DNA of 64,000 bases from Erysipelotrichaceae bacterium (lineage in GTDB: Bacteria; Bacillota_I; Bacilli_A; RFN20; CAG-449): positions 135,876-199,875 of the forward strand of contig SVBD01000001.1 of the NCBI GenBank assembly GCA_015059045.1. Direction: 5' to 3'. This document shows, one piece after another, positions 42,988-59,086 of this stretch (positions are counted from its first letter, which is position 1; each line of letters opens with the position of its first letter). The notes beneath the pieces were generated by a model that saw only the letters and a list, made by a program, of their open reading frames with translations, had not been told where the DNA came from and did not search any database. Position numbers and translations under genes: made by a program.

Positions 42988-43829
42988 TAATAAATTATTT
43001 TAATTTCTGTTTCAATAAATAATCCGATATTATTATATAATACTTCTTGTATCCTTTCAATTAATTTAACTAGATTTAGAATATCTAAATCTTTTCTCAA
43101 CTCGATAAAATTTTTATGAGTTTGACAAATAGAATATCCATTATATTCAGTAAAGTTTACATATTTATCAATCAGTTGATAAACTTTTATATTACTTAGA
43201 TTTTTAAATGTTGATCCTAAGCTATGAATTTGAGGCTGATTTTTTATTCGATAATTGATTGCAAGCAATTTATTTTTCAATAATTCATTAAAGCTTTTTC
43301 TTTTTACTTTAAATATCGCTTTATAAATAAAATAACCTTCATCTAATATTTTTATATTAATTTTACGGTAATTTAATTCTACTTCCTCTTTTTTTATAAT
43401 TCTAAAATTACCCTGTTTATCTATTATTAAAAGATATAATAAATTATCTGATATACATTGATCTAAAAAAGATGCATTATTAAAGATACTACCACCTAAT
43501 AAACCTGGAATTGTCATTAATTTTTCAAATCCTGAAATACCATTATTATTACATATATTACCCAGTATGCTTAGCGGCATACCAGAATCGACTACAATTA
43601 AATTTTTATATATTTTCATTTCTTTAGAAATGAACTTAATAATTTTGATTTCTTTATATTTGAAGCAAAATAATGTTTTGGAGGTATTACCTATAAATAA
43701 ATAACCACCTTCTTTTATAATGTTTTTAATCAAAGCAATTGAAGTAGTTTCTATATAAAATTTACATATGGCATCATTTTTAGCGTATGAAATTTCCTTT
43801 AAATTATATTCTCTTTGATAATTAATCAT
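42987..43829 (-). CDS. murB: UDP-N-acetylenolpyruvoylglucosamine reductase MurB-like
   Basis: 280 aa; FAD-binding region resembling MurB ([15 protein letters not shown]). Confidence 0.55.
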
Positions 43830-44418
43830 TTTCTACCTCATTAATTATTTTATCAATTGGATTAATATCAATTTTATATGTGTTTTTTCTTTTCATTGAA
43901 ACAATATGCGCCTCAATATTTTCTTTTGTAAAATCCTTTTCTTTAATTATCGAAATATATTTTTCAAAATATTTTGCATTTTTTTCTTGATGATTGTTTT
44001 TAACATATGGAGAAGGAATACAAACTATTTCTACACCACTTTTTAATACTTCTAATAATGTAGTTGCACCAGCTCTTGTAAATACTAAATCATAATATTC
44101 TAATTCGTACTTCATATTAATTTTTGATTTTACTTTAATATATATTGGGTTTTTATCTCTTAATTCTATAAAACTATTTTGTTTGCCTGATGAACGTCCA
44201 TTTAAAGGGAAAAATAGGTGACAATAATGAGTAGCGTCCTTTTCTATAGCCCATATTTTTATAGTATTTGCTATTATTTCTATAGCGTTATTAGATAATT
44301 CAAGATAATTATCTTTACACTTAATAAATTCTAAATAGATTTCTTTTGGAAATCTTCTTTTCATTTCTTCATCATTAAAAGTATTTTCACCATACATGCT
44401 TAATAATTTATTTTTCAT
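43822..44418 (-). CDS. Glycosyltransferase family 28 C-terminal domain protein (MurG C-domain only)
   Basis: 198 aa; [42 protein letters not shown] matches the MurG C-terminal UDP-GlcNAc-binding region; the N-terminal half of MurG is absent. Confidence 0.55.
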
Positions 44419-44427
44419 GTTTACCTC

Positions 44428-45236
44428 CTAAAATAAGATAATTAATATAATTGAAGCAAAAGATAATACTAACCCAACAATGAAAAAATACATTACAATT
44501 TGGTATTCTTTAAATCCTTTTAATTCTAAATGATGATGAAAAGGTGCCATCAAGAATAAGCGTTTTTTCGTTAATTTAAAAAAACTAACTTGAAGTATCA
44601 CACTTAATGTTTCAAAAATAAATAAACCACCACTAATTAAAAGAAATATTTCTTTATGCAATATAATTGCACTTATCCCTAATAACAATCCTAAAGATAA
44701 CGATCCAGAATCACCCATAAAAATTTTGCTAGGATGGAGGTTAAAACTTATGAATCCTAAAGTCGCACCAAAACTAGAAATCAATAAATATGTTAGGTAA
44801 TATTCCTTTTCAATTAAAGAAAATAAGATAAATGGAATAACCGCCAATAAGTATAAAGAGGAACTTAATCCATCCAATCCATCAGTTAAATTTACGCTAT
44901 TAGAACATCCAACTAAAATAAATGGAAACAAAATAAATATATATTTACCAATATTGATTTTATAATCATTTAATAAATTAATATTTTCAAATAAATAATG
45001 CTCTTGAAGATAATATAAACATATCAATGATAATACTAATTCTAAAAGAAATCTGATTATCGAAGGAATTCCATGATAATCTTTAAATTTAACTTTAATC
45101 AAATCATCAACTAATCCTATCAAGAAAAATGAAGTAATCATAATTATTATTACTTTAAAATAACTATAATTATAATATTGATAATATAAGATAGTAGTAA
45201 ATAAGACACTAATGATAATAGCAACACCCCCTAAAG
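44428..45236 (-). pseudogene. mraY: mraY 3' fragment (about 268 codons), separated from its 5' end by the inserted element
   Basis: The frame is open from 44428 up to a TAA created at the element boundary (45237..45239); it encodes SLGGVAIIS...DGLDGL...MGDSGS MraY motifs; the track ORF begins at an internal Met. Confidence 0.85.
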
Positions 45237-45246
45237 ATGGTGCAAC
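45223..45246. other. Left attachment junction (attL-like): host half-site, AAAG direct repeat, then element terminal IR GGTGCAACTTAGGGATTT
   Basis: The host mraY reading frame stops here; base composition switches sharply; the 18-bp IR matches the right end in 17/18 positions. Confidence 0.7.
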
Positions 45247-45306
45247 TTAGGGATTTACGAAAAACAGTAAATTTTTGAGCGACACCTTCAAGCGGGGCAA
45301 ACAAGT

Positions 45307-45353
45307 AAAGACCACACATAAGGATAAAACCTTGTGTGTGGTCTTTCTTTTTG
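45307..45353. terminator. Strong hairpin terminator at the left inner end of the element
   Basis: Perfect 12-bp stem AAAGACCACACA/TGTGTGGTCTTT with a T-rich tail; lies just 3' of the last cargo gene. Confidence 0.6.
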
Positions 45354-45356
45354 CGT

Positions 45357-45635
45357 TTAATCTTCTCCTGTGAGCAACATCACATCAAGCATCGTTCTTG
45401 CACCGAGCCGAAACGCATACACGAATATTGCCTCTTCTGCAAGGCTGGCGTATTCACTCCAACAATCATCGAACCGTTCTAAAATATCACGTTGCTCATC
45501 GGTCATTGCTTTTAGTAGGTCTTCGTGATGCCGAGCCATATACTCCATTAACTGCTTCATCTCGGGAGTGTTGTTACGGCTATCCGATTGCGGATTTATA
45601 TTGCCGTGCCACAATTCTGCAAGCGTATTTTTCAT
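45357..45635 (-). CDS. Hypothetical 92-aa acidic protein (last gene of the cargo operon)
   Basis: Start reassigned to MKNTLAELW, which has an AAGGAGGTG RBS; no recognisable domain. Confidence 0.5.
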   Translation of the reverse strand: MKNTLAELWHGNINPQSDSRNNTPEMKQLMEYMARHHEDLLKAMTDEQRDILERFDDCWSEYASLAEEAIFVYAFRLGARTMLDVMLLTGED

Positions 45636-45722
45636 ATGCACACCTCCTTGTAGCACAACACTATACCACAGGTCTGCGCATAAGTCCAGATAACAAATTG
45701 TGAACGAAACTTTGCCGCAGAG

Positions 45723-47051
45723 TTAGTTTTCTAAAGAGGCTGAAATATAATTTATACCTTCCAAAAAATAGAATTTGGAAAACTTATCTTTTCCCGCTAT
45801 TGGGCGGAATGTAATTTTTATATTTTTCTTTTTTCTCTTTTTTTGTTTTTCAACCGATTCTGCGTTATTTACTTTTGCATCTTTATAAACAATAATATAT
45901 TTTTCTGCTGAAAATCGTTGACCATGTAATGTAATGCCTAGAACTTTACCTTCAACAGCTATTTCGGAAGAAAGGGGTTCTTCTGCAAAGTCATCTGGTA
46001 TTCGGTCGTAATCACAGCGGGTTTCATCGCAAAAATTCGTTTTTACATGATGCCACTTTCCTACTAATGAAGAAGCTAGGATATATGCAGCTCTATAATC
46101 GCTTGTGTATACATCTCCAATACTAATATCAAATTTGCAACCAGTATGTTTTTCTATTGTAAGAAGGTTTTCAATGTAAGCAATAAGATGAGGGGCATTT
46201 TTAAACATTGGCGCCGACAATTCATTTTCATCCAATGTTGCATTTAACAACTCTTTGTCTCCAATCTTGATGGAAAGTTGCTTTGTTTTACCGATTTCAT
46301 TAATGAGCCGTTCACGAGCTAATTGTACATTCAAATCTAACGACGGAACTTTAGTAATATTAAAATCTGTGCGTGCTACATTATCATAAGCGGTAATTGA
46401 AAAATCAAATCCTTGCCCATTAGAAATTGTGCCAAATATCATTTTCCCATACTCAAGACATGGTTTTCTCCTCAATTGAATTTCGATGATTATATTACCC
46501 GATTGGATTGTGGCGGATACGGCAGGTGGAAACTCCGGTGCACCGATTATAGTTATCATTCCATCACGATATTCCATGTTAGGAAAAGGGTCTTCGATTT
46601 CGCCAAGATATTCTCGGTACGCTGTCGTTTTAAGCTCAACCCTTGTTTGTGTTCTATATGCATAATCCCATGGGGTTTCGGACTTACTCATATGAGGATA
46701 CTTTTTGTAGTCAATTTGATAGGTTCCCTTGATTTTTTTGGGATATTTAGATAATGCATCCGCTGTTTCGGGAGTGCTCACCAAGCGCCCTAAATCAGCG
46801 TTGGGTTTTACTGTAAAATCGGGATACAGTGGGTGAACTTTTTTGGCGGCAGAAAGAAAGTCCGTAAACTGTCTTTGAATAATATCATACTTTCCTATCT
46901 GACCGAGGATCGAAATCATTTCTGGCGTATTATTGCAGAAAACAGGAGACTCAACCGTGCTATCCTGAATAACGACATTGTGATTAGAATTTCTGCCGAT
47001 AGTTGAATTGTTTGATGAAGATTTTTTCCAAAACATAGTCTCTCCGTTCAT
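45723..47051 (-). CDS. Hypothetical 442-aa cytoplasmic protein (candidate effector)
   Basis: ORF with GC-rich codon usage; no Walker A and no TM helix; start codon overlaps (ATGA) the upstream 52-aa TM ORF. Confidence 0.5.
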   Translation of the reverse strand: MNGETMFWKKSSSNNSTIGRNSNHNVVIQDSTVESPVFCNNTPEMISILGQIGKYDIIQRQFTDFLSAAKKVHPLYPDFTVKPNADLGRLVSTPETADALSKYPKKIKGTYQIDYKKYPHMSKSETPWDYAYRTQTRVELKTTAYREYLGEIEDPFPNMEYRDGMITIIGAPEFPPAVSATIQSGNIIIEIQLRRKPCLEYGKMIFGTISNGQGFDFSITAYDNVARTDFNITKVPSLDLNVQLARERLINEIGKTKQLSIKIGDKELLNATLDENELSAPMFKNAPHLIAYIENLLTIEKHTGCKFDISIGDVYTSDYRAAYILASSLVGKWHHVKTNFCDETRCDYDRIPDDFAEEPLSSEIAVEGKVLGITLHGQRFSAEKYIIVYKDAKVNNAESVEKQKKRKKKNIKITFRPIAGKDKFSKFYFLEGINYISASLEN

Positions 47052-47206
47052 TTTTTCACATCACTGTTTTGTATTACTGTATTTCCATCACCTTTGATTT
47101 TTGCTTTTGCTTTGGATTTTCTTTCTATTGTTTTACCTGTAAAGAGACCTGCCACAAAGGTTGCTATAGGGAGCGCAACATCAATAAGCCAAAATTTCCA
47201 ATCCAT
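47048..47206 (-). CDS. 52-aa single-pass membrane peptide, translationally coupled to the 442-aa ORF
   Basis: Encodes MDWKFWLIDVALPIATFVAGLFTGKTIERKSKAKAKIKGDGNTVIQNSDVKK; one TM helix and a basic C-tail; absent from the track because it is under 60 aa. Confidence 0.45.
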   Translation of the reverse strand: MDWKFWLIDVALPIATFVAGLFTGKTIERKSKAKAKIKGDGNTVIQNSDVKK

Positions 47207-47224
47207 TTTAATTCACTTCCTTTG

Positions 47225-47722
47225 TTAATTTTTAGGAATTAGCGTCCGAAAATCAATCCCGTTTGCGCTTGTATCCCATTTTCCTACTTGCATTTGTTTT
47301 ATACGCTTACCGTCACCGAAATCAAGCAAGTCGAGCCTATTGAAATTGTTGAGAATCTTATTCAAACTACCGAGCCCCGCAGAAGACAACAAAAATGCTT
47401 CTGCCGGATCGCACAATTTACAATACGCCCATAACTGACCCAAGTCGTGGAGATTTAACTGTGTTTTCTTAGCTTCTATAAAAACAATGCTTGTCTTTTT
47501 ACCCTTTATGATTATACCGAGAACATCAATTTGAATATCCAAACCCACGGTTTGTGGATAATTGTCTATGACTCCGTATTTCTCAAGAAAAAGGTCGAGA
47601 GTTTGCGCATGAGAGTCAACAGTGATTATTGTTGCCCCCGGATATTTTTCTTCCAAATACGTTTGAAGCCAACACCGCATCGGCTCATATAACTCAAATT
47701 CTTTTTTTACATTATTCGCCAT
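47225..47722 (-). CDS. PD-(D/E)xK-like nuclease candidate (165 aa)
   Basis: Residues D...GLDIQIDVLG...IVFIEAKKT form a D/(D/E)xK pattern typical of the restriction-endonuclease fold; 11-nt overlap with the upstream gene. Confidence 0.4.
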   Translation of the reverse strand: MANNVKKEFELYEPMRCWLQTYLEEKYPGATIITVDSHAQTLDLFLEKYGVIDNYPQTVGLDIQIDVLGIIIKGKKTSIVFIEAKKTQLNLHDLGQLWAYCKLCDPAEAFLLSSAGLGSLNKILNNFNRLDLLDFGDGKRIKQMQVGKWDTSANGIDFRTLIPKN

Positions 47723-48584
47723 AACCTAAGAACCTCGCCAAATCTGTCCAAGAGTCAAAGTGCTTTCCACGAATTTCTTCGGGCAAACTATGGTCGTGCT
47801 CACCAGGATGAAGGGGCTTGCTTGCGCGTTTAACAGTTTTTTCCCAATAGAATTTATGGGTTTTAACTGGGTCGATAAACTCTAAAAGTTCTTCGCTGTA
47901 TTTCTCAAGAGCATCCTGCTTGTGTTTAATGTTGAATCCGACGGCAAGGAACTCATTAGCAAATATTTTAACTTGATGTTCCTTTTTCCAAAAGTTCGGT
48001 TTGCCTTCGTTGTATTTTACTAGCTTTCCGTCTCTAAAGTTGGGATGACCGAAATCAATAGTTTGTACGGGAACATCAATATCCTTGAGCATATTTGCGA
48101 TGTCGATAACCATATACCAATTTCCGGGGATTTCAATATAAACTCTGTGCGCACCGTCTTGACCGAACGCAATATTGCTTTTTCTTATGTATCCTGTAAC
48201 GTCTGCGATTCCTCGAAGCAACGCACGCTTTTGGTCAGAAGTTATAGAAAACAGCTCTGGGTTCATTCTCATAGTTGAATGATGTCTGCCACCGCCAATG
48301 AGACGTATGATTTCTCTCATAACGTATTCATCGTTGGGTTTTGTGAACGAGAGCTTCGTCGAATGGGGCGCTTCAGTAACAACCAAATTGTGCCCAATCA
48401 AAGGCTCTACTATAGAACGAATATCAACAATACTAGCCTTTACATATATTGCGACATCTTTCAAATCGTCCGTGTATAAATTTTTATAAGGAATATCTAT
48501 GGTAACGGTTGTGGTGCTAGTTCCTCTTTGAATTTCACCGTTGCCTAATATCATTCCGAGTAAATATGACATTTCTGCATTCAT
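47712..48584 (-). CDS. Hypothetical protein with two LAGLIDADG-like segments (290 aa)
   Basis: Start reassigned to MNAEMSYLLGMILGNGEIQ, which has an AAGGCGG RBS; a second segment ALLRGIADVTGYI lies about 120 aa downstream; canonical catalytic Asp not conserved. Confidence 0.3.
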   Translation of the reverse strand: MNAEMSYLLGMILGNGEIQRGTSTTTVTIDIPYKNLYTDDLKDVAIYVKASIVDIRSIVEPLIGHNLVVTEAPHSTKLSFTKPNDEYVMREIIRLIGGGRHHSTMRMNPELFSITSDQKRALLRGIADVTGYIRKSNIAFGQDGAHRVYIEIPGNWYMVIDIANMLKDIDVPVQTIDFGHPNFRDGKLVKYNEGKPNFWKKEHQVKIFANEFLAVGFNIKHKQDALEKYSEELLEFIDPVKTHKFYWEKTVKRASKPLHPGEHDHSLPEEIRGKHFDSWTDLARFLGYGE

Positions 48585-48600
48585 AAATATTACCGCCTTA

Positions 48601-49329
48601 TTAAAGATTATATCCGCGTTCAAATTCTGCTTGATAACCTCTATCAATCGCTAGTTTGCGGATTTCAGTTGTGTTTTGTATATCACCAAACCTAAAACCA
48701 TACCTCTCAACAAGAGTAAGAACAAATTTTGACTTATTAATTCTGCCGACACAAGAACCATTTCCTGCGCCCATATTATCTCTTAAAATTTGAGGACAAT
48801 TCCGCAAGCTGGAAAAATTAATTCTAAATTGAGGGCTTAATTTGTTTGGCATTCCACTCGGTGTATCTCCCATAGTGATAGGACGATAGGTCTGTCCGGG
48901 GAAAAGTTCCTCAAAAATATCATCTCTTCCATCCATAGGAACTTCTGCTTCAATTGAACCAATTCTGCCGGGGCGAGCCATATATCCTACCAACTCATAC
49001 ATCTGCTGTTCGTTTCTGACAGCTATAGTCTGCGAACGAGGTCCCAACAACGAGGATGCTGCACGTCCTTGAGAAGAAAACATTTTTGTTGGCTGAATAG
49101 CCTGAGCAGGGTGCGTTGCCGCCGTAGGGGGTGTGGTTAAAACGACTTCCTTGTTAGCTTCATTTACAATGTTTTGAAGTTCGGCGTCAAAAATGGTAAA
49201 GAATTTATCAAATCCTTTTACCAAGAATGTTTTTTCAGCCGTTTCAAATTTGACTTTGATTTGTCCGTTAGCAACAGAGGTAACGATACCATCACCGAAA
49301 ACACGGTGTTTTACTTTATATGCTGACAT
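48601..49329 (-). CDS. Hypothetical protein (242 aa), directly downstream of the MTase
   Basis: ORF abuts the MTase stop; N-terminal small domain, Pro/Ala/Thr-rich linker and a C-terminal domain; no known motif. Confidence 0.45.
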   Translation of the reverse strand: MSAYKVKHRVFGDGIVTSVANGQIKVKFETAEKTFLVKGFDKFFTIFDAELQNIVNEANKEVVLTTPPTAATHPAQAIQPTKMFSSQGRAASSLLGPRSQTIAVRNEQQMYELVGYMARPGRIGSIEAEVPMDGRDDIFEELFPGQTYRPITMGDTPSGMPNKLSPQFRINFSSLRNCPQILRDNMGAGNGSCVGRINKSKFVLTLVERYGFRFGDIQNTTEIRKLAIDRGYQAEFERGYNL

Positions 49330-51441
49330 TTATTTTGCCCCCAATATTTCATAAATTTGGTCTGAGATGGCTTTTGCCATTAAAGGCGGAACAGCATTGC
49401 CTATTTGAGTGCGAATATAAACCTTCGAGCCGATAAATACAAATTTATCATCGAAAGACTGTATTCTAGCCGCTTCACGAGGTGTGATTGCTCTGTGCAA
49501 GAAAGGGTGATTGTTCGTACCGTTGGATGAGGCATCGAAGCGTGTATCAATTGTTGGTGATACAGCATCCCACTTCAAACGTCCCCAAGTACCGCTAAAC
49601 TGTTGTTTTCCGGTTAATTCATCAGGGAGATACTCTTTTCCGCATTCTGGTGGAATCATTTGCAATTTTCTTATTGCAATTTCCGCATGATTAGAAGCCT
49701 TGTGATTATAGAGTTTTTTGCTGCCTTGGCGCATCATTCTTTGATAATCACTTGTGGGCTCGGTAATATATTCTTGTTCAAAATCTCCTTCATTTGAGTT
49801 TAAGTATGCTAAATCATATATAGCATCTCTTACAGTAACGGGAGTAACACAAGTTGGCAACGGCAACGGCACTTTTTTTCTTTTAGAGCATATAAATATT
49901 GCTCTTTGCCGTGCTTGAGGAACACCAAAATCGGATGCGGTCAAAACACCGTAAGACACGGTATAGCCCATTTGCGATACCTTTTCAACAATTTGGTTTT
50001 TGAACCATCCCGCAGAGGTTGACAATAAAGCTTTTACATTTTCAATAACAAATACTTCGGGTTGGAGAATTGAAACTATATTTAAATATTCATTGAATAG
50101 GAAGTTGCGAGGGTCATCTAAACCGAGTTTTTTGCCTTTAAGAGAAAAACCTTGACAAGGGGGACCACCAATAATCATATTGACATTCCTTGCCTTGCTC
50201 AATTCGATAATCCGCTCGCGCACTTTGCTATCAGTGATATCACCCGAAACAACTTCCGTTTGAGGCATATTATATTTAAATGTCTTCAGGGCTTGTTCGT
50301 TAAAATCTAATGCCACAGACGTAGTAAAATGCTCGTTTTTTTCCATGCCATATGACATTCCGCCTGCACCGCTAAATAAGTCCAAAATGCGGAATTCACT
50401 AATTTCGGGATTGTTAAGTCTTCTATTGCGTATCAAAATCCTTTTGAAAACTTCCTTTCCGTTAATTGTTGGCTTAAATAAATCGTATTCATTATCAGAA
50501 CCGTGATTTGCTTCACCTACAATTTCAAATTGTTCGCTGTTATATCTATTGACTATAGTAATAGGAACAGCCATAATACCGGGGTAATCATACGGAATAT
50601 CTGTTATAGTTTTTACGTGAATTGCATCGTAATTATCGTATTTAGGATATTCCTCGGGCGTATACTTCTTGGTCAACGGCAACTCGGTATGTCTTCTATC
50701 ATTATCGAGATTGGTGAGCCACATAGCGTTTCCAAGACTACGCCATTTTTGACCGCTCTCATCAACCCAATATCTTGTTGAGCGCGGTTCAGATGATTGC
50801 GGTACACGGAATTTCATTTCTCCAAATTGATATCCCGTCCATACTTCGTTATTCTGAATTAAAGGAAAAATTTCCTTATATGTAAGAGCATTTTGATTTC
50901 CAATCAGCAAAAAGCTCTTTTTATATTTCATAATTTCAGCTACAATTTCTTTAAATAATGAAAAAGGTGGGTTTGTAACAACAATATCACATTCGCGTAA
51001 ATATTTAATACACTCAGGACTTCTAAAATCTCCATCACCCTTGAGTTTTTTAATTATGCGACTGCCCGAAAGGAAACGCGAAACAAAATCATCTGAAAGT
51101 TCTTCTTTGCCTTCGCCAATTTCTTTTACATCGAGAACATATCCATTATCTGCGCATAAAGGTTCATTCTCGTCATCAAATAAACTTAATTGTGTTGAGA
51201 CAACCTTTGAGGAACGATATGACGTGCATATCAAACGCTTTAGCTGAAGTTTATTAAAGTTTCTTAAAAAGAATTTACAAAAATTAGATTCAAAGGGGTC
51301 ATCACAATTACATAAAACGGTTTTTCCATAAAACTGCTCCGTATAATGGAAAACCTCAGCTTCGATGGTTTCATATGTTGTATAGAATTCATCGTCCCTT
51401 GCGCGTTTTGCCGCTTGAAGGTTCGTGTTCTTATTTCCCAT
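49330..51441 (-). CDS. Fused DNA methyltransferase: N-terminal amino-MTase-like domain plus C-terminal C5-cytosine MTase
   Basis: N-terminal half contains DIVVTNPPFS, the motif IV of N6A/N4C MTases; C-terminal half contains LFSGAGG (motif I), GGPPCQGFS (motif IV), ENV (motif VI), QARQR (motif VIII) and GNAVPP (motif X); AGGAG RBS. Confidence 0.85.
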   Translation of the reverse strand: MGNKNTNLQAAKRARDDEFYTTYETIEAEVFHYTEQFYGKTVLCNCDDPFESNFCKFFLRNFNKLQLKRLICTSYRSSKVVSTQLSLFDDENEPLCADNGYVLDVKEIGEGKEELSDDFVSRFLSGSRIIKKLKGDGDFRSPECIKYLRECDIVVTNPPFSLFKEIVAEIMKYKKSFLLIGNQNALTYKEIFPLIQNNEVWTGYQFGEMKFRVPQSSEPRSTRYWVDESGQKWRSLGNAMWLTNLDNDRRHTELPLTKKYTPEEYPKYDNYDAIHVKTITDIPYDYPGIMAVPITIVNRYNSEQFEIVGEANHGSDNEYDLFKPTINGKEVFKRILIRNRRLNNPEISEFRILDLFSGAGGMSYGMEKNEHFTTSVALDFNEQALKTFKYNMPQTEVVSGDITDSKVRERIIELSKARNVNMIIGGPPCQGFSLKGKKLGLDDPRNFLFNEYLNIVSILQPEVFVIENVKALLSTSAGWFKNQIVEKVSQMGYTVSYGVLTASDFGVPQARQRAIFICSKRKKVPLPLPTCVTPVTVRDAIYDLAYLNSNEGDFEQEYITEPTSDYQRMMRQGSKKLYNHKASNHAEIAIRKLQMIPPECGKEYLPDELTGKQQFSGTWGRLKWDAVSPTIDTRFDASSNGTNNHPFLHRAITPREAARIQSFDDKFVFIGSKVYIRTQIGNAVPPLMAKAISDQIYEILGAK

Positions 51442-51468
51442 TTTTATCTCCTAATAATGGTTAAATTT

Positions 51469-51678
51469 TTAATTGTTGTCGGGTATGACTTCCATAATGT
51501 CTCCGACATCGCATTCCAATGCTTGACATATTCTCACAATCACTTCGGTATTAACATTTTCATCGTGACCGAGCTTTGCCATTGTACCTCTGCTTATACC
51601 GGTAGCAGCAATAAGGTCTTTTTTCTTCATTTTTTTATCAATTAGCAATTTCCATAGTTTGTTATAGCAAACAGCCAT
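51469..51678 (-). CDS. XRE-family HTH regulator (C-protein-like controller and/or element repressor)
   Basis: 69 aa from the ATG MAVCYNKLWKLL, which has a GAGGTG RBS; HTH segment DLIAATGISRGTMAKL; 27 bp upstream of the MTase and divergent from the primase gene. Confidence 0.7.
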   Translation of the reverse strand: MAVCYNKLWKLLIDKKMKKKDLIAATGISRGTMAKLGHDENVNTEVIVRICQALECDVGDIMEVIPDNN

Positions 51679-51879
51679 ATCGCACCTCAAATAAAATTTT
51701 TGTTTTAGATATTATATCACAGATAGCAAGAAAAGGCAATATATTTTACTAAAATTAAAAGCATTTTTGTCAAAGGCTTTTGAAAAATGTTCATATTTGT
51801 AGACTTTTTCTAAAGTGCCATCCGTTCCTTCCGGGGAGCGGATTTTTTATTTTCTGAAGATTTTTCAAAAAGGGGCTTA

Positions 51880-52460
51880 AAAAATGTCGTTTTCGTGAGC
51901 TACCTATGAGGAAAAATTTATGCAAAGGGGGTTAACTTTTGCCGTTTTCGTGACCTACCAGTAGAGGAAAAAAATTATTTTTGCTAAACCCTTCAATTTT
52001 TTCCATTACCGAGGCTTGTATATGAGAGGCGGAAAGATTTATAAACTTTTTTTCAAAAAGCGGACCAAAGCCGATAAAAATCTCCAACCAGGTAGTGAGG
52101 AGAGAAAAATTATCTTTTTTTCGTAAAAGCGGACCAAACGGCATTTCATTTTCCAGCCAGGGGATGAAGAGAGAAAATATTAAGATTTTTCTCGTTTCGG
52201 TGGAAAAACGACTCTCGATTCTCCAACAGGTGGTGAAATGGAAAATATTTTTTGAAGATTTTTCGGAAAACTCCCCCCCCAATATGCCACTCAAATCTCC
52301 GTATAACGAAAATCGAAAAATTTTTTTGAAAAACGGGTCCCCAATAAGCCCTCCAAATCTCCGTATAACGAAGGCGGTAAAAATCATTTGTTTTTTTTCG
52401 ATTTTCACGATTTGGTGGAAAAACGGCTTTCCATTTTCCAACTGGGGAGTGAAGGCACCC
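51880..52460. repeat. Array of about 8 degenerate direct repeats (period about 65-70 bp; iteron-like) in the 840-bp non-coding region upstream of the primase-helicase gene; putative replication origin
   Basis: Recurring cores TCTCCAACCAGGTAGTGAGGAGAGAAAAATTA, TTTTCCAGCCAGGGGATGAAGAGAGAAAATATTA, TTCTCCAACAGGTGGTGAAATGGAAAATATTT, TTTTCCAACTGGGGAGTGAAGG, plus two copies of AAATCTCCGTATAACGAA and two of CGTTTTCGTGA(G/C)CTACC; a C8 tract at 52273..52280. Confidence 0.7.
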
Positions 52461-52528
52461 AACAACCAAGAAAGGAGGTACACCGATGAACACAACGCTT
52501 ACAACAAAAATGAAAGGAGGTCGATACG

Positions 52529-54820
52529 ATGCAGGATTTTATGGCGGAGCTGAAAGCAATGTCCATATGGTTTCATTGGCATTGGGAACAGGATAAGAAC
52601 GGACGGCAGACCAAAGTGCCTCACGCAGCAAGAGGCGGCGCAACCGGAACTTCCGAGCAGTGGGCGCATACGTGGGTCACATATGAAGATGCACTTGCCC
52701 TGAAAGATGAGCAACACGCCTCGGGGCTTGGCTTCAAGGTACCTGATGGCTACTTCTTTCTTGATGCCGATCATTACGGACTTGAAGATCCCTTTATACA
52801 AGTGCTCCTTGAACGCTTCAATTCATATACGGAACGTTCGGTCAGCGGCGGAGGCATCCACATCTACGGCAGATGCGATGTCGGAAAGCTACCCATTGTT
52901 ACCGATAAAAACGGAAAGCAAAAGCTCGACGGCGCATTCTACGTAAAAAATCCCGGCAACCGCCTTGAACTTTATATCGGTGATCTTACCAACCGCTTTG
53001 CCGTATTCACCGGAGACGTGGTATGGGAGCAACCTCTTAAGGAATGCACCAATGCCGTGCTTACAACCCTCGATAAAAATATGCGCCGATCCGAAAAGAA
53101 GAAGTACAGCGAAAGCCGTGATGGGGACAAGGTTACCTTTGACCTCATATGCAATCTGCGAAAGCAGAAGAACGGAGATAAATTTCGTAAGCTCTTCGAT
53201 GACGGCGATATCAGTGACTACGGTTCTCACTCTGAAGCCGATGCCGCCCTGTGTGCCTTGATAGCCTTTCGCGCCGGGGATGACCCCGAGATGATTGATA
53301 TGCTCTTTCGACAATCAGCTCTCTATCGTGAGAAGTGGGAGCGTGATGACTATCGGAGTGCCACTATCAACATCGGCATTCGTGCCTGCAACGGAGAGTA
53401 TCACCGCTCCAAAATGCCTCATCCGTATTTTATCAAGTTTGACGATGATGGAATTCCTCACATTTGCGTTCCACTCCTTGCCAAATACGTGCGAGAGCAT
53501 CTTTGCTATCTGCTTGTCCGTGATAACGGCAAACAAGGACTCCTTCGGTACGTTTACGATGAGGACGGATGCTACCGCTTATATTCCTCGGATATGTTCC
53601 TCGGGGCAATCAAACGGTTTATTGCCGACTATGATGAGGAGCTTGTAAAAATGAGCAAGGTCAATGAAGTCTTACAGCACATCAGCACCGACCTCAACTA
53701 CATCAGCCAAGAGGAGCTTGACAGTAATGAGAGCATCATCAATTTCAAGAACGGCTTGCTGCAAGTAACAGAGACGGACACAACGCTCCTTATGCATACT
53801 CCCGAGGTCATCTCTACCATACAGATTCCGTGCGAGTGGCGTGGGCATCCGACCCCAACACCGGTATTTGACCGTTATATGCATACCCTCACCAACGGAG
53901 ATAAAGCCACCGAGGAACTTCTCCTGCAGTTCATAGGCGCGTGTATTTCCAATATAAAAGGATGGCGAATGAAAAAATCCCTCTTCCTTGTGGGTGACGG
54001 CAATACGGGTAAATCACAGCTCAAAAGCCTCGTGGAGCGGTTGCTCGGCAAAGGCAACTTTATCGGTATCGACCTCAAAGAGATCGAGGCTCGGTTCGGC
54101 ACGGGTGCTGTATACGGCACTCGTCTCGCAGGTAGTTCAGATATGAGCTTTCTCACCGTGGACGAGCTTAAGACCTTTAAGAAAATGACGGGCGGTGACA
54201 GCCTTTACGCAGAGTTCAAGGGTCAGCAAGCCTTTGAGTATACCTACGGCGGGTTGCTTTGGTTCTGTATGAATCGCTTGCCGAAGTTCGGAGGTGACGA
54301 TGGGCAATGGGTATATGACCGCATTATGGTCGTCAACTGTCCCAACGTGATACCGAAGGACAAGCAAGACAAAAAGCTCCTCGATAAGATGTATGCCGAG
54401 CGTGAGGGCATCGTTTACAAAGCTGTAAAAGCCTTGCAGACCGTTATCGCAAACGGCTATAGGTTCTCCGAGCCTGAATCCGTAAGCCTTGCACGTGAGC
54501 GTTATATGAACGAGAACAGCACGGTGGTCTCCTTCTTTGAGGAGTGTATGTGTCCGCTCCCCGGCGGCAAAATCAATCCCCATTGTACTACCGGGCGCAT
54601 CTTCCGTGTGTACCAGGCTTGGTGCTTTGAGAACAACCACGGCTATGCAAAGTCAGCCAAGGAGTTCCGAGAGGAGCTTGCCGACTACCTCGGTACTACT
54701 CATGCTGATATGACTATGCGCCAAAAAGGAAACACCTACTACCGCGAGTACACGCTTACGCTTGAAACCAAGGAGCAATATTCAAGGGAGTACGGCTTTG
54801 ATACCACGGAGTTCTTATGA
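52529..54820 (+). CDS. Replication primase-polymerase/SF3 helicase (phage/plasmid P4-family primase, D5-like)
   Basis: 763 aa; N-terminal prim-pol motifs (FFLDADH, SGGGIHIY); C-terminal SF3 helicase Walker A GDGNTGKS; AAGGAGG RBS. Confidence 0.8.
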   Translation: MQDFMAELKAMSIWFHWHWEQDKNGRQTKVPHAARGGATGTSEQWAHTWVTYEDALALKDEQHASGLGFKVPDGYFFLDADHYGLEDPFIQVLLERFNSYTERSVSGGGIHIYGRCDVGKLPIVTDKNGKQKLDGAFYVKNPGNRLELYIGDLTNRFAVFTGDVVWEQPLKECTNAVLTTLDKNMRRSEKKKYSESRDGDKVTFDLICNLRKQKNGDKFRKLFDDGDISDYGSHSEADAALCALIAFRAGDDPEMIDMLFRQSALYREKWERDDYRSATINIGIRACNGEYHRSKMPHPYFIKFDDDGIPHICVPLLAKYVREHLCYLLVRDNGKQGLLRYVYDEDGCYRLYSSDMFLGAIKRFIADYDEELVKMSKVNEVLQHISTDLNYISQEELDSNESIINFKNGLLQVTETDTTLLMHTPEVISTIQIPCEWRGHPTPTPVFDRYMHTLTNGDKATEELLLQFIGACISNIKGWRMKKSLFLVGDGNTGKSQLKSLVERLLGKGNFIGIDLKEIEARFGTGAVYGTRLAGSSDMSFLTVDELKTFKKMTGGDSLYAEFKGQQAFEYTYGGLLWFCMNRLPKFGGDDGQWVYDRIMVVNCPNVIPKDKQDKKLLDKMYAEREGIVYKAVKALQTVIANGYRFSEPESVSLARERYMNENSTVVSFFEECMCPLPGGKINPHCTTGRIFRVYQAWCFENNHGYAKSAKEFREELADYLGTTHADMTMRQKGNTYYREYTLTLETKEQYSREYGFDTTEFL

Positions 54821-55709: not shown

Positions 55710-55987
55710 AAAGATATTATCCTCTCATTGATATGGATACAACCGGGACGATAAAGGTGCCGATGTTTCCTGCCAATGATTACAAAAAAGCATTACGGAG
55801 GAGTAATTTTGCTCTCGGAGAGGTTACCCGTAACCGCTACCGCTTGATTGCCGTGACTCCTCATGCTATGAGAGATTATCTCTCTTACGACATCCGTTGT
55901 CCCAAGTGCGGTGCGACAATGGATGTAACCGAACCGCACGAAGGTGAGTATGTTCTCGGAGAATATACTTGCGAAAACTGTCAATAA
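55706..55987 (+). CDS. Hypothetical zinc-ribbon protein (93 aa)
   Basis: CPKCG...CENC four-Cys arrangement at the C-terminus. Confidence 0.4.
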   Translation: MKRYYPLIDMDTTGTIKVPMFPANDYKKALRRSNFALGEVTRNRYRLIAVTPHAMRDYLSYDIRCPKCGATMDVTEPHEGEYVLGEYTCENCQ

Positions 55988-56007
55988 AATTTTGGAGGTA
56001 TAAAACT

Positions 56008-56946
56008 ATGACGATTGACGCTATTAAAGAAAGAGACTATGCCTTGGCTATGTCCGAATACGATTATGCGTTTTGGAATGCCGTAAAGCGCAAACCCCAC
56101 AATGCCCAGGAATTAAAAAAAGGTATTTGGGCTGAAAACGCATATCTTCCGCTTGGAGGAAATTTAAAAATGACCGCTGCCCTCAAGAGAGAAAGCGTAT
56201 TCCGTTCACTCGCTACCATTGCATATTTGAGAGATCCCGGCGGTATCGTTCTCGCAAAGCATTGCACCACAGAGAGCTGTTGGGTGCCCGAACACGGAAT
56301 GTATACCTTTACCCAGGGCGAAGGTGAATTTACAAATTACAATATCAAAGCTCATAAGCTCGGAGCTCTTCTCAAGTACGATGAGGTGTTTATGACAGAT
56401 ATCGGTCTTGATATGGAAAATCATCTGATCGACAGCATTGCAAAGAGTTTCGGTGCGATGGAAGATGCCGCTTATGTAAACGGCACGGGAGATATTCAGC
56501 CCACCGGTATTCTCCATAACACACGTGGTGCGCAGATTGGAGCAACTACTGCGGCTCTCACTTATGAGGATGTAGTCAAGCTCTACTTCTCGGTCAAGCC
56601 TGAATATCGCAAGCATGGGACTTGGATGATGAACGATGAGACCGCATACTATCTCCGCACTCTCAAGGATGAAGGCGGCAACTACATTTGGAATCATACC
56701 AACGATACCATTCTCGGCAAGCCTGTACGCATTTGCAATGATATGCCGAGCATCGGTGCCGGAAACAAGCCTATTGCATTCGGAGATTTCTCCTACTATT
56801 GGATTATTCTCCGTGATGACGTAAGTATCAATATCCTCAAGGAGCTTTACTATGATATGGGGCAGGTCGGCTACATCGCCCGTGAATATCTCGATGCAAA
56901 GCTTATCCGTCCCGAGGCAATTAAGGTCATTCGGATGACCGAGTGA
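56008..56946 (+). CDS. Phage major capsid protein, HK97-fold family
   Basis: Start at MTIDAIKERD, which has a GGAGG RBS; C-terminal ILGKPVRICNDMP...IAFGDFSYYWIILRD region is characteristic of HK97-type capsid proteins. Confidence 0.6.
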   Translation: MTIDAIKERDYALAMSEYDYAFWNAVKRKPHNAQELKKGIWAENAYLPLGGNLKMTAALKRESVFRSLATIAYLRDPGGIVLAKHCTTESCWVPEHGMYTFTQGEGEFTNYNIKAHKLGALLKYDEVFMTDIGLDMENHLIDSIAKSFGAMEDAAYVNGTGDIQPTGILHNTRGAQIGATTAALTYEDVVKLYFSVKPEYRKHGTWMMNDETAYYLRTLKDEGGNYIWNHTNDTILGKPVRICNDMPSIGAGNKPIAFGDFSYYWIILRDDVSINILKELYYDMGQVGYIAREYLDAKLIRPEAIKVIRMTE

Positions 56947-57124: not shown

Positions 57125-58876
<1,752 letters not shown>

Positions 58877-58888
58877 CCCAGGGATTAA

Positions 58889-58914
58889 AAATCCCTAATT
58901 TGCACCCACAAAAG
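58889..58914. other. Right attachment junction (attR-like): element terminal IR AAATCCCTAATTTGCACC followed by the AAAG direct repeat
   Basis: Mirror image of the left end; host mraY coding resumes immediately on the minus strand. Confidence 0.7.
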
Positions 58915-59086
58915 TCGGGGTCAATTTTTTATTTTGATGATTTTCAAATAAATAAGTGCTAATCGCTTGTCCTTTTACATGCTTTTTCTGAATTTTAATT
59001 ATTGATTTATTTAAAATTAAACTAACAACAAAAGACATAAAGAAACAACATATAGATGTTAATCCTATATACGTTTGGCTAAACAT
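58892..59086 (-). pseudogene. mraY: mraY 5' fragment (first about 58 codons plus an element-derived FVGAN tail)
   Basis: Encodes MFSQTYIGLTSICCFFMSFVVSLILNKSIIKIQKKHVKGQAISTYLFENHQNKKLTPT, matching the MraY N-terminus up to the conserved TPT(M/L)GG motif, then runs into the element IR and a TAG. Confidence 0.8.

Follow-up and report, generated by a model that had tools for sequence, protein, structure and literature searches.

Within a 64,000-nucleotide (nt) stretch of DNA from an Erysipelotrichaceae bacterium (assembly GCA_015059045.1, contig SVBD01000001.1, positions 135,876 to 199,875 of the forward strand; hereafter the window, with positions counted from its first letter), three small open reading frames (ORFs), named here A, B and C, follow a gene for a fused DNA methyltransferase. 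Two of them, B and C, belong together: conserved synteny across three methyltransferase combinations, together with natural fusions, supports the view that they act as a unit beside the methyltransferase. Probably – and this is the reading that we develop here from alignments and predicted structures – B and C form with the paired methyltransferases a Type II restriction-modification system of a kind not yet named, likely directed at an asymmetric site, in which a catalytically dead LAGLIDADG protein would read the DNA and a separate PD-(D/E)xK protein would cut it. The core of the system has two parts, B and C, not three. The preliminary description of this DNA had imagined a multi-subunit endonuclease joining a homing-endonuclease-like module to a PD-(D/E)xK subunit; synteny and fusions bear out the pairing of B with C, whereas A, absent from most loci, loses its place as a third subunit.

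The cassette and its relatives

The genes of the cassette, all encoded on the minus strand, and the motifs discussed below are as follows.

47225-47722, minus strand: ORF C, 165 residues
47468-47527, minus strand: segment encoding the core of C, D66...E83-A-K85
47712-48584, minus strand: ORF B, 290 residues from the ATG at 48584
47712-48647, minus strand: longer frame of ORF B from the first TTG, 311 residues
48192-48218, minus strand: segment encoding motif 2 of B, LRGIADVT130G
48537-48563, minus strand: segment encoding motif 1 of B, LLGMILGN15G
48601-49329, minus strand: ORF A, 242 residues
49330-51441, minus strand: fused DNA methyltransferase, 703 residues, PF13651 and PF00145
51469-51690, minus strand: small Cro/C1-type helix-turn-helix (HTH) protein, 69-73 residues, Pfam HTH_26
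51711-51739, minus strand: sigma-70-like promoter candidate, TTGCCT, 17-nt spacer, TG-TATAAT

The tight linkage first reported for the three ORFs, of 242, 290 and 165 residues, is exact in the ORF listing, with a 16-nt gap between A and B (A stop at 48601, B ATG at 48584) and an 11-nt overlap between B and C (47712-47722). The methyltransferase stop, at 49330, abuts the start of A at 49329, and the methyltransferase gene is co-oriented with A-B-C and directly upstream of it, as in Type II restriction-modification. The 290-residue reading of B is the correct one because its homologues are about 290 residues long (120 of 120 among the matches listed) and its sequenced relatives share the N-terminus M-N-x-E-M-S-Y-L-L-G.

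The methyltransferase combines an EcoRI-like N6-adenine domain (PF13651, residues 7-339, E 5e-120) with a C5-cytosine domain whose motifs come in linear order (PF00145, residues 350-697, E 9e-69); its neighbours in the PDB, HaeIII, HhaI and Dnmt1, give no clue to its target specificity. The HTH protein, which matches HTH_26 (E 3.2e-22) and a PDB entry named 'transcriptional regulator' (3tyr, E 4e-21), is from its position likely to be a C-protein-like controller of the cassette, and in many related loci the methyltransferase is likewise preceded by an HTH gene (HTH_26 or HTH_3). The inverted repeats upstream of the window's HTH gene are too AT-rich and imperfect for a C-box call. The promoter candidate directly upstream of that gene has 10 of 12 hexamer matches and an extended -10 TG; it is a consensus match alone, and such sites are no more frequent in the region than in shuffled sequence. 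No terminator-like site was seen on the minus strand in the scanned interval, 45000-52600. Gene string, promoter candidate and terminator scan make the HTH, methyltransferase, A, B and C genes compatible with a single operon.

Public records label A, B and C 'hypothetical protein'. Cluster counts (1785 homologous clusters at 90% identity for B, 2678 for C), the recurrent gene order and identical copies of the A, B and C proteins on 7-15 other contigs establish them as real genes, not chance ORFs. About 95 independent loci, 15 of them from metagenomes and 80 from species-representative genomes, have the layout of the window: N6-methyladenine (m6A) and 5-methylcytosine (m5C) methyltransferases, fused or as two genes, are followed by B and then by C with the 11-nt overlap. 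The two-gene form of related loci encodes adjacent proteins of about 345 and 355 residues, and in most window-type loci the methyltransferase stop overlaps the start of B by 4 nt. C overlaps the end of B in about 77 of the 80 genome loci, that is, wherever the contig allows it, and the two genes are adjacent in about 110 loci overall.

The hosts of window-type loci include Clostridia, Bacilli, Bacteroidales, Treponema, Saccharibacteria and others; the proteins are 66-88% identical across these distant hosts, which points to horizontal spread. Among cultured carriers we find [Ruminococcus] torques ATCC 27756, Ruminococcus albus 8, Streptococcus suis, S. pseudopneumoniae and Haloimpatiens lingqiaonensis. 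The cassette can be reduced to very little: plasmid p9 of Lactiplantibacillus plantarum (6.5 kilobases, kb) carries only Rep, DUF536, a fused methyltransferase, B, C and a toxin-antitoxin pair, and an Anaeroplasmataceae phage carries methyltransferase, B and C. In these minimal cassettes, on p9 and in the phage, no other nuclease candidate was found.

Further away, an exhaustive search of representatives at 50% identity yields 266 relatives of B. One clade of split genes, about 33% identical to B, keeps the order: a C homologue comes directly after the B-like gene in 13 of the 13 loci with downstream sequence, and the upstream genes are MethyltransfD12 and N6_N4_Mtase in several. Elsewhere B and C are a single protein: at least 205 fusions of about 545 residues have C-terminal parts that share LYEP..WL, (P)D-V, F(I/V)E-x-K and GQL-GY with C of the window. 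They occur in Nanoarchaeota, Patescibacteria, Acinetobacter baumannii prophages, Empedobacter and others, flanked by two methyltransferases, either D12 and N6_N4 or N6_Mtase/Eco57I and N6_N4, and two of three fusion contexts also have an HTH gene. When the profile of the fused family was run against PDB sequences, no nuclease was retrieved; pentatricopeptide-repeat matches fall in the low-complexity linker. After the fusions comes a paralogue of C, here C', of 158-167 residues (27% identical to C, E 5e-14; hhalign probability 96%), in which the E-x-K is replaced by N/S-R-T/S.

Some features of the fused loci deserve separate mention. In L016 and L017 (both Acinetobacter baumannii), L018 and L019, the fused gene is followed by an overlapping gene for the C-like paralogue. 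The surroundings of the A. baumannii cassette are prophage-like, with terminase, tail-spike, holin and endolysin genes on one side and an ArdA anti-restriction gene on the other. In many fused forms a zinc-ribbon, CxxC...CxxC, is inserted into the first LAGLIDADG domain.

The folds of B and C

Profiles are silent about B. No family in Pfam, NCBIfam or PHROGs, curated LAGLIDADG profiles included, matches it at E <= 1, and PADLOC has no significant match; PDB sequences provide none either; Pfam detects no HTH family in it and returns nothing useful for ten of its distant relatives. The fold speaks more clearly. An AlphaFold2 model built from an alignment of 136 sequences (predicted local distance difference test, pLDDT, 85; predicted template-modelling score, pTM, 0.87) displays the order alpha-beta-beta-alpha-beta-beta-alpha twice, and the best 50 Foldseek matches in the PDB are all LAGLIDADG proteins, with probability 0.98-1.00. 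Its neighbours include I-AniI (E 1.6e-5) and I-Tsp061I (target template-modelling score 0.68), then I-DmoI, PI-SceI, I-SceI, I-OnuI, the bI3 maturase and WhiA (8dy9, 8dy7).

The LAGLIDADG-type helices of B span residues 3-15 and 116-130; N15-G16 closes the first and T130-G131 the second, and N15 and T130 occupy the positions of the metal-binding acid of active LAGLIDADG enzymes. That B has two such helices, with asparagine and threonine where the catalytic aspartate normally sits, had been read from the sequence at the outset, and the fold model and the alignment agree. Position 15 is arginine in 110 sequences, asparagine in 21 and lysine in 5; position 130 is alanine in 77, serine in 32, threonine in 25 and isoleucine in 2; aspartate or glutamate appears at neither (0/136 in each case).

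Conservation is strong elsewhere. Domain 1 has few invariant polar residues, while domain 2 and the tail have D128, R147, N155, D177, H180, N182, D185, E202, H203, Q204, K206, K222, H259, E262 and H275, and B carries an invariant GHPN-x-RD / EHQ-x-K segment. The C-terminal tail, about 50 residues long, conserved and rich in histidine, glutamate and aspartate, has short helices at 239-245, 260-263 and 279-285 in the model. This polar cluster could be a rebuilt active site, a metal site or a docking surface for C. The genomic setting of B is always the same: it stands between a methyltransferase gene and C, or is fused to C, and is not an intron, intein or free-standing homing gene.

Domains resembling B also occur in larger proteins. 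P0322, P0326, P0335 and P0366, of about 990-1300 residues, carry at their C-terminus a B-like LAGLIDADG domain, degenerate but complete, which keeps the GHPNIRD, KEHQLK and HP-E-N..LP..LRG-H-D motifs; their N-terminal 700-1000 residues or so have no Pfam match, and these proteins have no C-like domain.

Nothing in Pfam, PHROGs, NCBIfam, PADLOC or the PDB sequences matches C significantly; the PDDEXK family YhcG_C appears weakly in Pfam, at E 0.19. Its model (pLDDT 91) has the order alpha-beta-beta-beta-alpha-beta. Across 136 sequences E8, Y12, D66, E83, K85, G95, Q96 and Y100 are invariant, and a proline precedes D66 in 115 of the 136. In the window the motif reads GLDIQID66VLG...IVFIE83AK85K: D66 starts the strand 67-73, E83 and K85 lie in the strand 76-85, and the next helix carries Q96. 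Foldseek matches are weak, yet they are restriction enzymes and other PD-(D/E)xK nucleases alone: MspJI, BamHI, Can2, EcoT38I, Hjc and FokI in the PDB (best E 0.014), and Cas4/RecB, Mrr-like, VRR-NUC and restriction endonucleases in BFVD (best E 3e-4). The PD-(D/E)xK core that the preliminary description considered plausible is thus upheld by the invariant E8, D66, E83, K85 and Q96, by the model and, weakly, by these nuclease-fold matches. Structure prediction and Foldseek place B with LAGLIDADG proteins and C, weakly, with PD-(D/E)xK nucleases, not in unrelated families. We propose C, from its conserved residues and its model, as the putative catalytic subunit, a PD-(D/E)xK protein.

The proposed restriction system and its rivals

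How might these parts work together? The HTH protein would control one operon. The target of the fused methyltransferase would be asymmetric, one strand receiving m6A and the opposite one m5C. B, presumably unable to cut through its LAGLIDADG centre, would recognise the unmethylated target with its beta-sheet saddle, and methyl groups in the major groove would block its binding. Once bound, B would recruit C, non-covalently in the window and as a tethered C-terminal domain in the fusions of about 545 residues; C would then hydrolyse the DNA, and A might modulate the system as an optional accessory outside the enzyme proper. That B-C keeps paired methyltransferases while the families of these enzymes change is how the nuclease of a restriction-modification system would be expected to behave if its target were asymmetric. 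Such pairs, of differing chemistry, are on record in asymmetric-site systems: BsrDI and BtsI (PMC1950550) and MhoVII (PMC12898733).

In function the closest analogues are heterodimeric enzymes. BtsI and BsrDI are made of a small PD-ExK subunit and a large recognition subunit, accompanied by two methyltransferases, and have fused relatives, BsmI and BsrI (PMC1950550; PMC4081073); the BtsI subunits are encoded by ORFs of 495 base pairs (bp; 164 residues) and 987 bp (PMC1950550). As in these enzymes, and in BspD6I/BstNBI, a larger recognition subunit would go in B-C with a PD...ExK subunit of about 165 residues, while the single-chain BsmI and BsrI parallel the B-C fusions. The difference lies in the large subunit, which in BtsI and BsrDI is a nickase of the PD-(D/E)xK type, whereas B has a LAGLIDADG fold and a single canonical site is found in B:C. 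We considered B and C as homologues of the BtsI/BsrDI subunits and set the idea aside: the sizes fit, but no sequence similarity was found, and despite the published structures of BsmI (PMC11889245) the 50 best fold matches of B are LAGLIDADG proteins without exception.

Three points weigh against our proposal. Each B:C unit has one canonical active site, and C' has lost the glutamate and lysine of its own, so that a double-strand break would need either the FokI-like pairing of C between two complexes or another, non-canonical site in B. The asymmetry of the target is itself presumed. Finally, the invariant residues of domain 2 and the tail of B could form a catalytic or metal site instead of belonging to a passive scaffold.

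The first and last of these points lead to the best of the alternatives, which we nevertheless hold to be unlikely. The enzyme would resemble those of Type IIT: B would be a site-specific nickase with an active site rebuilt in its second LAGLIDADG domain, and C would cut the other strand. The concentration of invariant polar residues in domain 2 and the tail, with few in domain 1, speaks for this; the sole intact PD-(D/E)xK site per unit, beside an inactive C' where there is a fusion, fits as well, and the contrast between split and fused forms mirrors that between BtsI/BsrDI and BsmI/BsrI (PMC1950550). Yet the canonical metal-binding position is never acidic in either LAGLIDADG motif, Pfam, NCBIfam and PDB searches recognise no nuclease motif in B, and a structural metal site or a docking surface for C would explain the invariant cluster equally well.

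Our proposal, a non-cutting B that reads for C, finds models in both nature and the laboratory. Like LAGLIDADG homing endonucleases (I-AniI, I-DmoI, I-Tsp061I, I-SceI, PI-SceI), B has the two-domain fold and the glycine-ended helices, and with its 290 residues or so it is a single-chain pseudo-dimer, as are the single-chain enzymes of that family; it differs from them in that its catalytic acids are replaced, that Pfam does not match it at E <= 1 and that it belongs to a methyltransferase operon. Like FokI-type Type IIS enzymes, B-C would couple a non-cutting reading module to a PD-(D/E)xK cleavage module, with a long linker in the relatives of about 545 residues; dimerisation of C after the manner of FokI would complete the parallel. 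Engineers have fused inactive I-SceI to FokI, PvuII or MutH (PMC2685105, PMC3258161, PMC3627573). These fusions are man-made, whereas the B-C combination is natural, ancient and widespread, and in the window it consists of two polypeptides.

WhiA (DUF199) is a further precedent, a catalytically degenerate LAGLIDADG scaffold kept for DNA binding, as we propose for B. It might suggest that B is a WhiA-like transcriptional regulator only, with a homodimer of C as the whole restriction enzyme, and we find this very improbable. WhiA does figure among the structural neighbours of B, showing that LAGLIDADG proteins have been domesticated for DNA binding, and C is small, like some homodimeric Type IIP enzymes. 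But WhiA, a transcription factor whose role is housekeeping or developmental, ends in an HTH domain, whereas B has no HTH that we could find, has a nuclease as its neighbour or as a fused part, and moves on mobile elements in the company of methyltransferases. The cassette already has its dedicated HTH regulator; fusion of B to C, in at least 205 proteins, fits a recognition-plus-cleavage enzyme and not a regulator with its target gene; the presence of two methyltransferase activities speaks for a site that is asymmetric, and a simple homodimer would not read one; and the 165 residues of C, conserved mostly at the catalytic core, would leave little room for sequence recognition.

Just as hard to credit is the idea that B-C is not cognate to its methyltransferases, being a Vsr-like repair nickase, a modification-dependent nuclease or a homing nuclease that spreads the cassette, beside orphan anti-restriction enzymes of the mobile element: orphan methyltransferases are frequent on mobile elements, Vsr genes typically sit after C5 methyltransferase genes, one active nuclease site suits a nickase and LAGLIDADG ancestry hints at homing, but B-C also accompanies D12 and N6_N4 pairs with no C5 enzyme, a misfit with deamination repair, translational coupling to methyltransferases would make a modification-dependent nuclease self-destructive, homing is at odds with the absence of intron or intein context and of canonical LAGLIDADG catalytic residues, and plasmid p9, small as it is, has kept precisely the methyltransferase, B and C, the classic layout of addiction-type restriction-modification.

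Two other characterised groups were compared with these loci. The title of Bitinaite 1992, as given in PMC6700114, describes m6A and m5C methylation on complementary strands of the asymmetric site of Alw26I, Eco31I and Esp3I (the GTCTC family), the very chemistry that the window's methyltransferase would have. The C5 methyltransferases of these systems are circularly permuted (PMC5944983), and the names Alw26I, Eco31I and Esp3I occur in a survey of His-Me finger proteins (PMC5714182). The C5 domain of the window, by contrast, matches PF00145 in linear order. The Alw26I, Eco31I and Esp3I nucleases are HNH (His-Me) enzymes. For both reasons, the order of the C5 motifs and the type of nuclease, we rejected the fusions of about 545 residues as BsaI/Eco31I-type enzymes. 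MhoVII, where a YhdJ and D12 methyltransferase fusion acts on GATG/CATC (PMC12898733), was considered as a characterised relative of the fused-type loci, and no link was made.

What would follow if a dead LAGLIDADG reader and a PD-(D/E)xK cutter did form the enzyme? The folds known among restriction enzymes are PD-(D/E)xK, HNH, GIY-YIG, phospholipase-D and half-pipe. The LAGLIDADG fold is regarded as one that only homing enzymes, maturases and WhiA possess. Full-text literature searches, which did not extend to REBASE, returned no report of LAGLIDADG proteins in restriction or defence, and a large review of Type II enzymes from 2014 never mentions them (PMC4081073). The LAGLIDADG fold would thus be added to the list as a new structural class of restriction enzyme, which would make an evolutionary bridge from homing endonucleases to restriction enzymes and a natural counterpart of the engineered fusions of inactive I-SceI. 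A wider generalisation, tentative and on the doubtful side, is that the LAGLIDADG scaffold, dead or re-armed, has repeatedly been used as a sequence-reading module, with a rebuilt site in B or an unusually long asymmetric target, and with A as a new kind of modulator; a rebuilt site or a long target would offer a natural, evolvable 'meganuclease-plus-cleavage-domain' platform. There is a practical side to this: as PADLOC, Pfam and NCBIfam have no model for the family, surveys of defence on gut mobile elements would score these cassettes as orphan methyltransferases.

The companion gene A and the mobile element

A is made of an N-terminal domain (residues 1-62, approximately), a linker rich in proline, threonine and alanine (about 63-95), and what we call the A-family domain (about 96-242), so that the linker between two regions noticed at first sight is indeed there. 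The N-terminal part and the linker were seen only in the window's own lineage; the former may be a small beta-rich domain, possibly SH3- or Tudor-like. Pfam, PHROGs, NCBIfam, PADLOC and PDB sequences hold no match to A, and tblastn against plasmids and phages found none either.

The slot between methyltransferase and B, where A resides, contains no gene in 73 of 94 evaluable loci. Where there is one, it encodes 111-115 residues, 164-167 residues or, in the window, 242. Residues 96-242 or so of A are 63-65% identical to the product of the 164-residue slot gene of L007. Direct hhalign comparison of the 111-residue type with the 164- and 242-residue types finds no homology; the relationship is clear only through 142-residue slot genes of a distant D12/N6_N4 clade, which match both the 111-residue type (97.2%, E 4.6e-11) and the window type (97.6%, E 3e-12), and it is this bridge that makes the 111-, 142-, 164- and 242-residue slot genes one family. 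A hidden Markov model of the A family has matches in 30 of 114 loci scanned, at positions that vary: some lie in the slot, some after C in either orientation, and some before the HTH gene. L020 and L030 have no A-family gene, though their B and C are 79-88% identical to those of the window. Being mostly absent and variable in position and strand, A is a recurrent, optional companion and not an obligatory subunit. We also asked whether A could be a degenerate C-like paralogue in the role of C'; hhalign gives it a probability of <=1% against C or C', and the idea was dropped.

The cassette is carried by a region of distinct composition. Host DNA, with ftsZ, ftsA and mur genes, has a guanine-plus-cytosine (G+C) content of 21-33%, while the segment from about 45.2 to 58.9 kb has 34-49% and carries genes for a primase-helicase, an HK97-type capsid protein and a large serine recombinase. 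Composition and gene content together place the cassette in the cargo region of an integrated mobile element, of which the other features are:

45357-45656: DUF6809 protein, 99 residues, last island gene before mraY
45723-47051: 442-residue AbiGii-like protein
47048-47206: predicted membrane peptide of 52 residues, directly downstream of C
52529-54820: D5/NrS-1-type primase-helicase
55969-56946: HK97-type capsid protein
57143-58852: large DUF4368 serine recombinase, abutting the island junction

The 442-residue protein has a weak PADLOC match to AbiGii (E 1.4e-13) and none in Pfam, and its gene overlaps that of the 52-residue peptide. What follows C, defence cargo of the mobile elements, changes from locus to locus, as in a swap slot: Gabija-like OLD with UvrD, KwaA/KwaB (Kiwa), a reverse transcriptase, or an AbiGii-like gene. 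The island also has three small ORFs and, terminase and tail genes not being present in the window, is reminiscent of a phage satellite.

The higher-G+C island, of about 13.7 kb (regions 44428-45250 and 58852-59086), is apparently inserted inside mraY, so that the mobile element appears to split an apparently essential cell-wall gene. A 63-residue minus-strand ORF at 58895-59086, ending in ...GQAISTYLFENHQNKKLTPTFVGAN*, resembles the N-terminus of MraY; the rest of the protein (Glycos_transf_4) resumes at about 45235, in frame (...SLGGVAIIISV...), and is called only from the ATG at 45141. Another sample (L100) has the same split-mraY arrangement. At the murG position, 43822-44418, lies a 198-residue chimera of an N-terminal segment of glutamine synthetase III (PF12437) and no more than the C-terminal half of MurG (PF04101). 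Chimera and split mraY, taken together, hint at a peptidoglycan pathway decaying in this low-G+C Erysipelotrichaceae host.

Two last details concern the DNA between genes. Within a gene-poor stretch of about 850 bp, from the HTH gene to the divergent primase gene (51700-52530), where spurious overlapping ORFs are called on both strands, a 69-bp unit occurs twice (52046-52182, 77% match) and could be an origin or iteron region of the element. Near the inferred left junction of the island, just past the 3' end of the DUF6809 gene, a hairpin with a 17-bp stem (45307-45346) is accompanied by a run of T when read on the plus strand.

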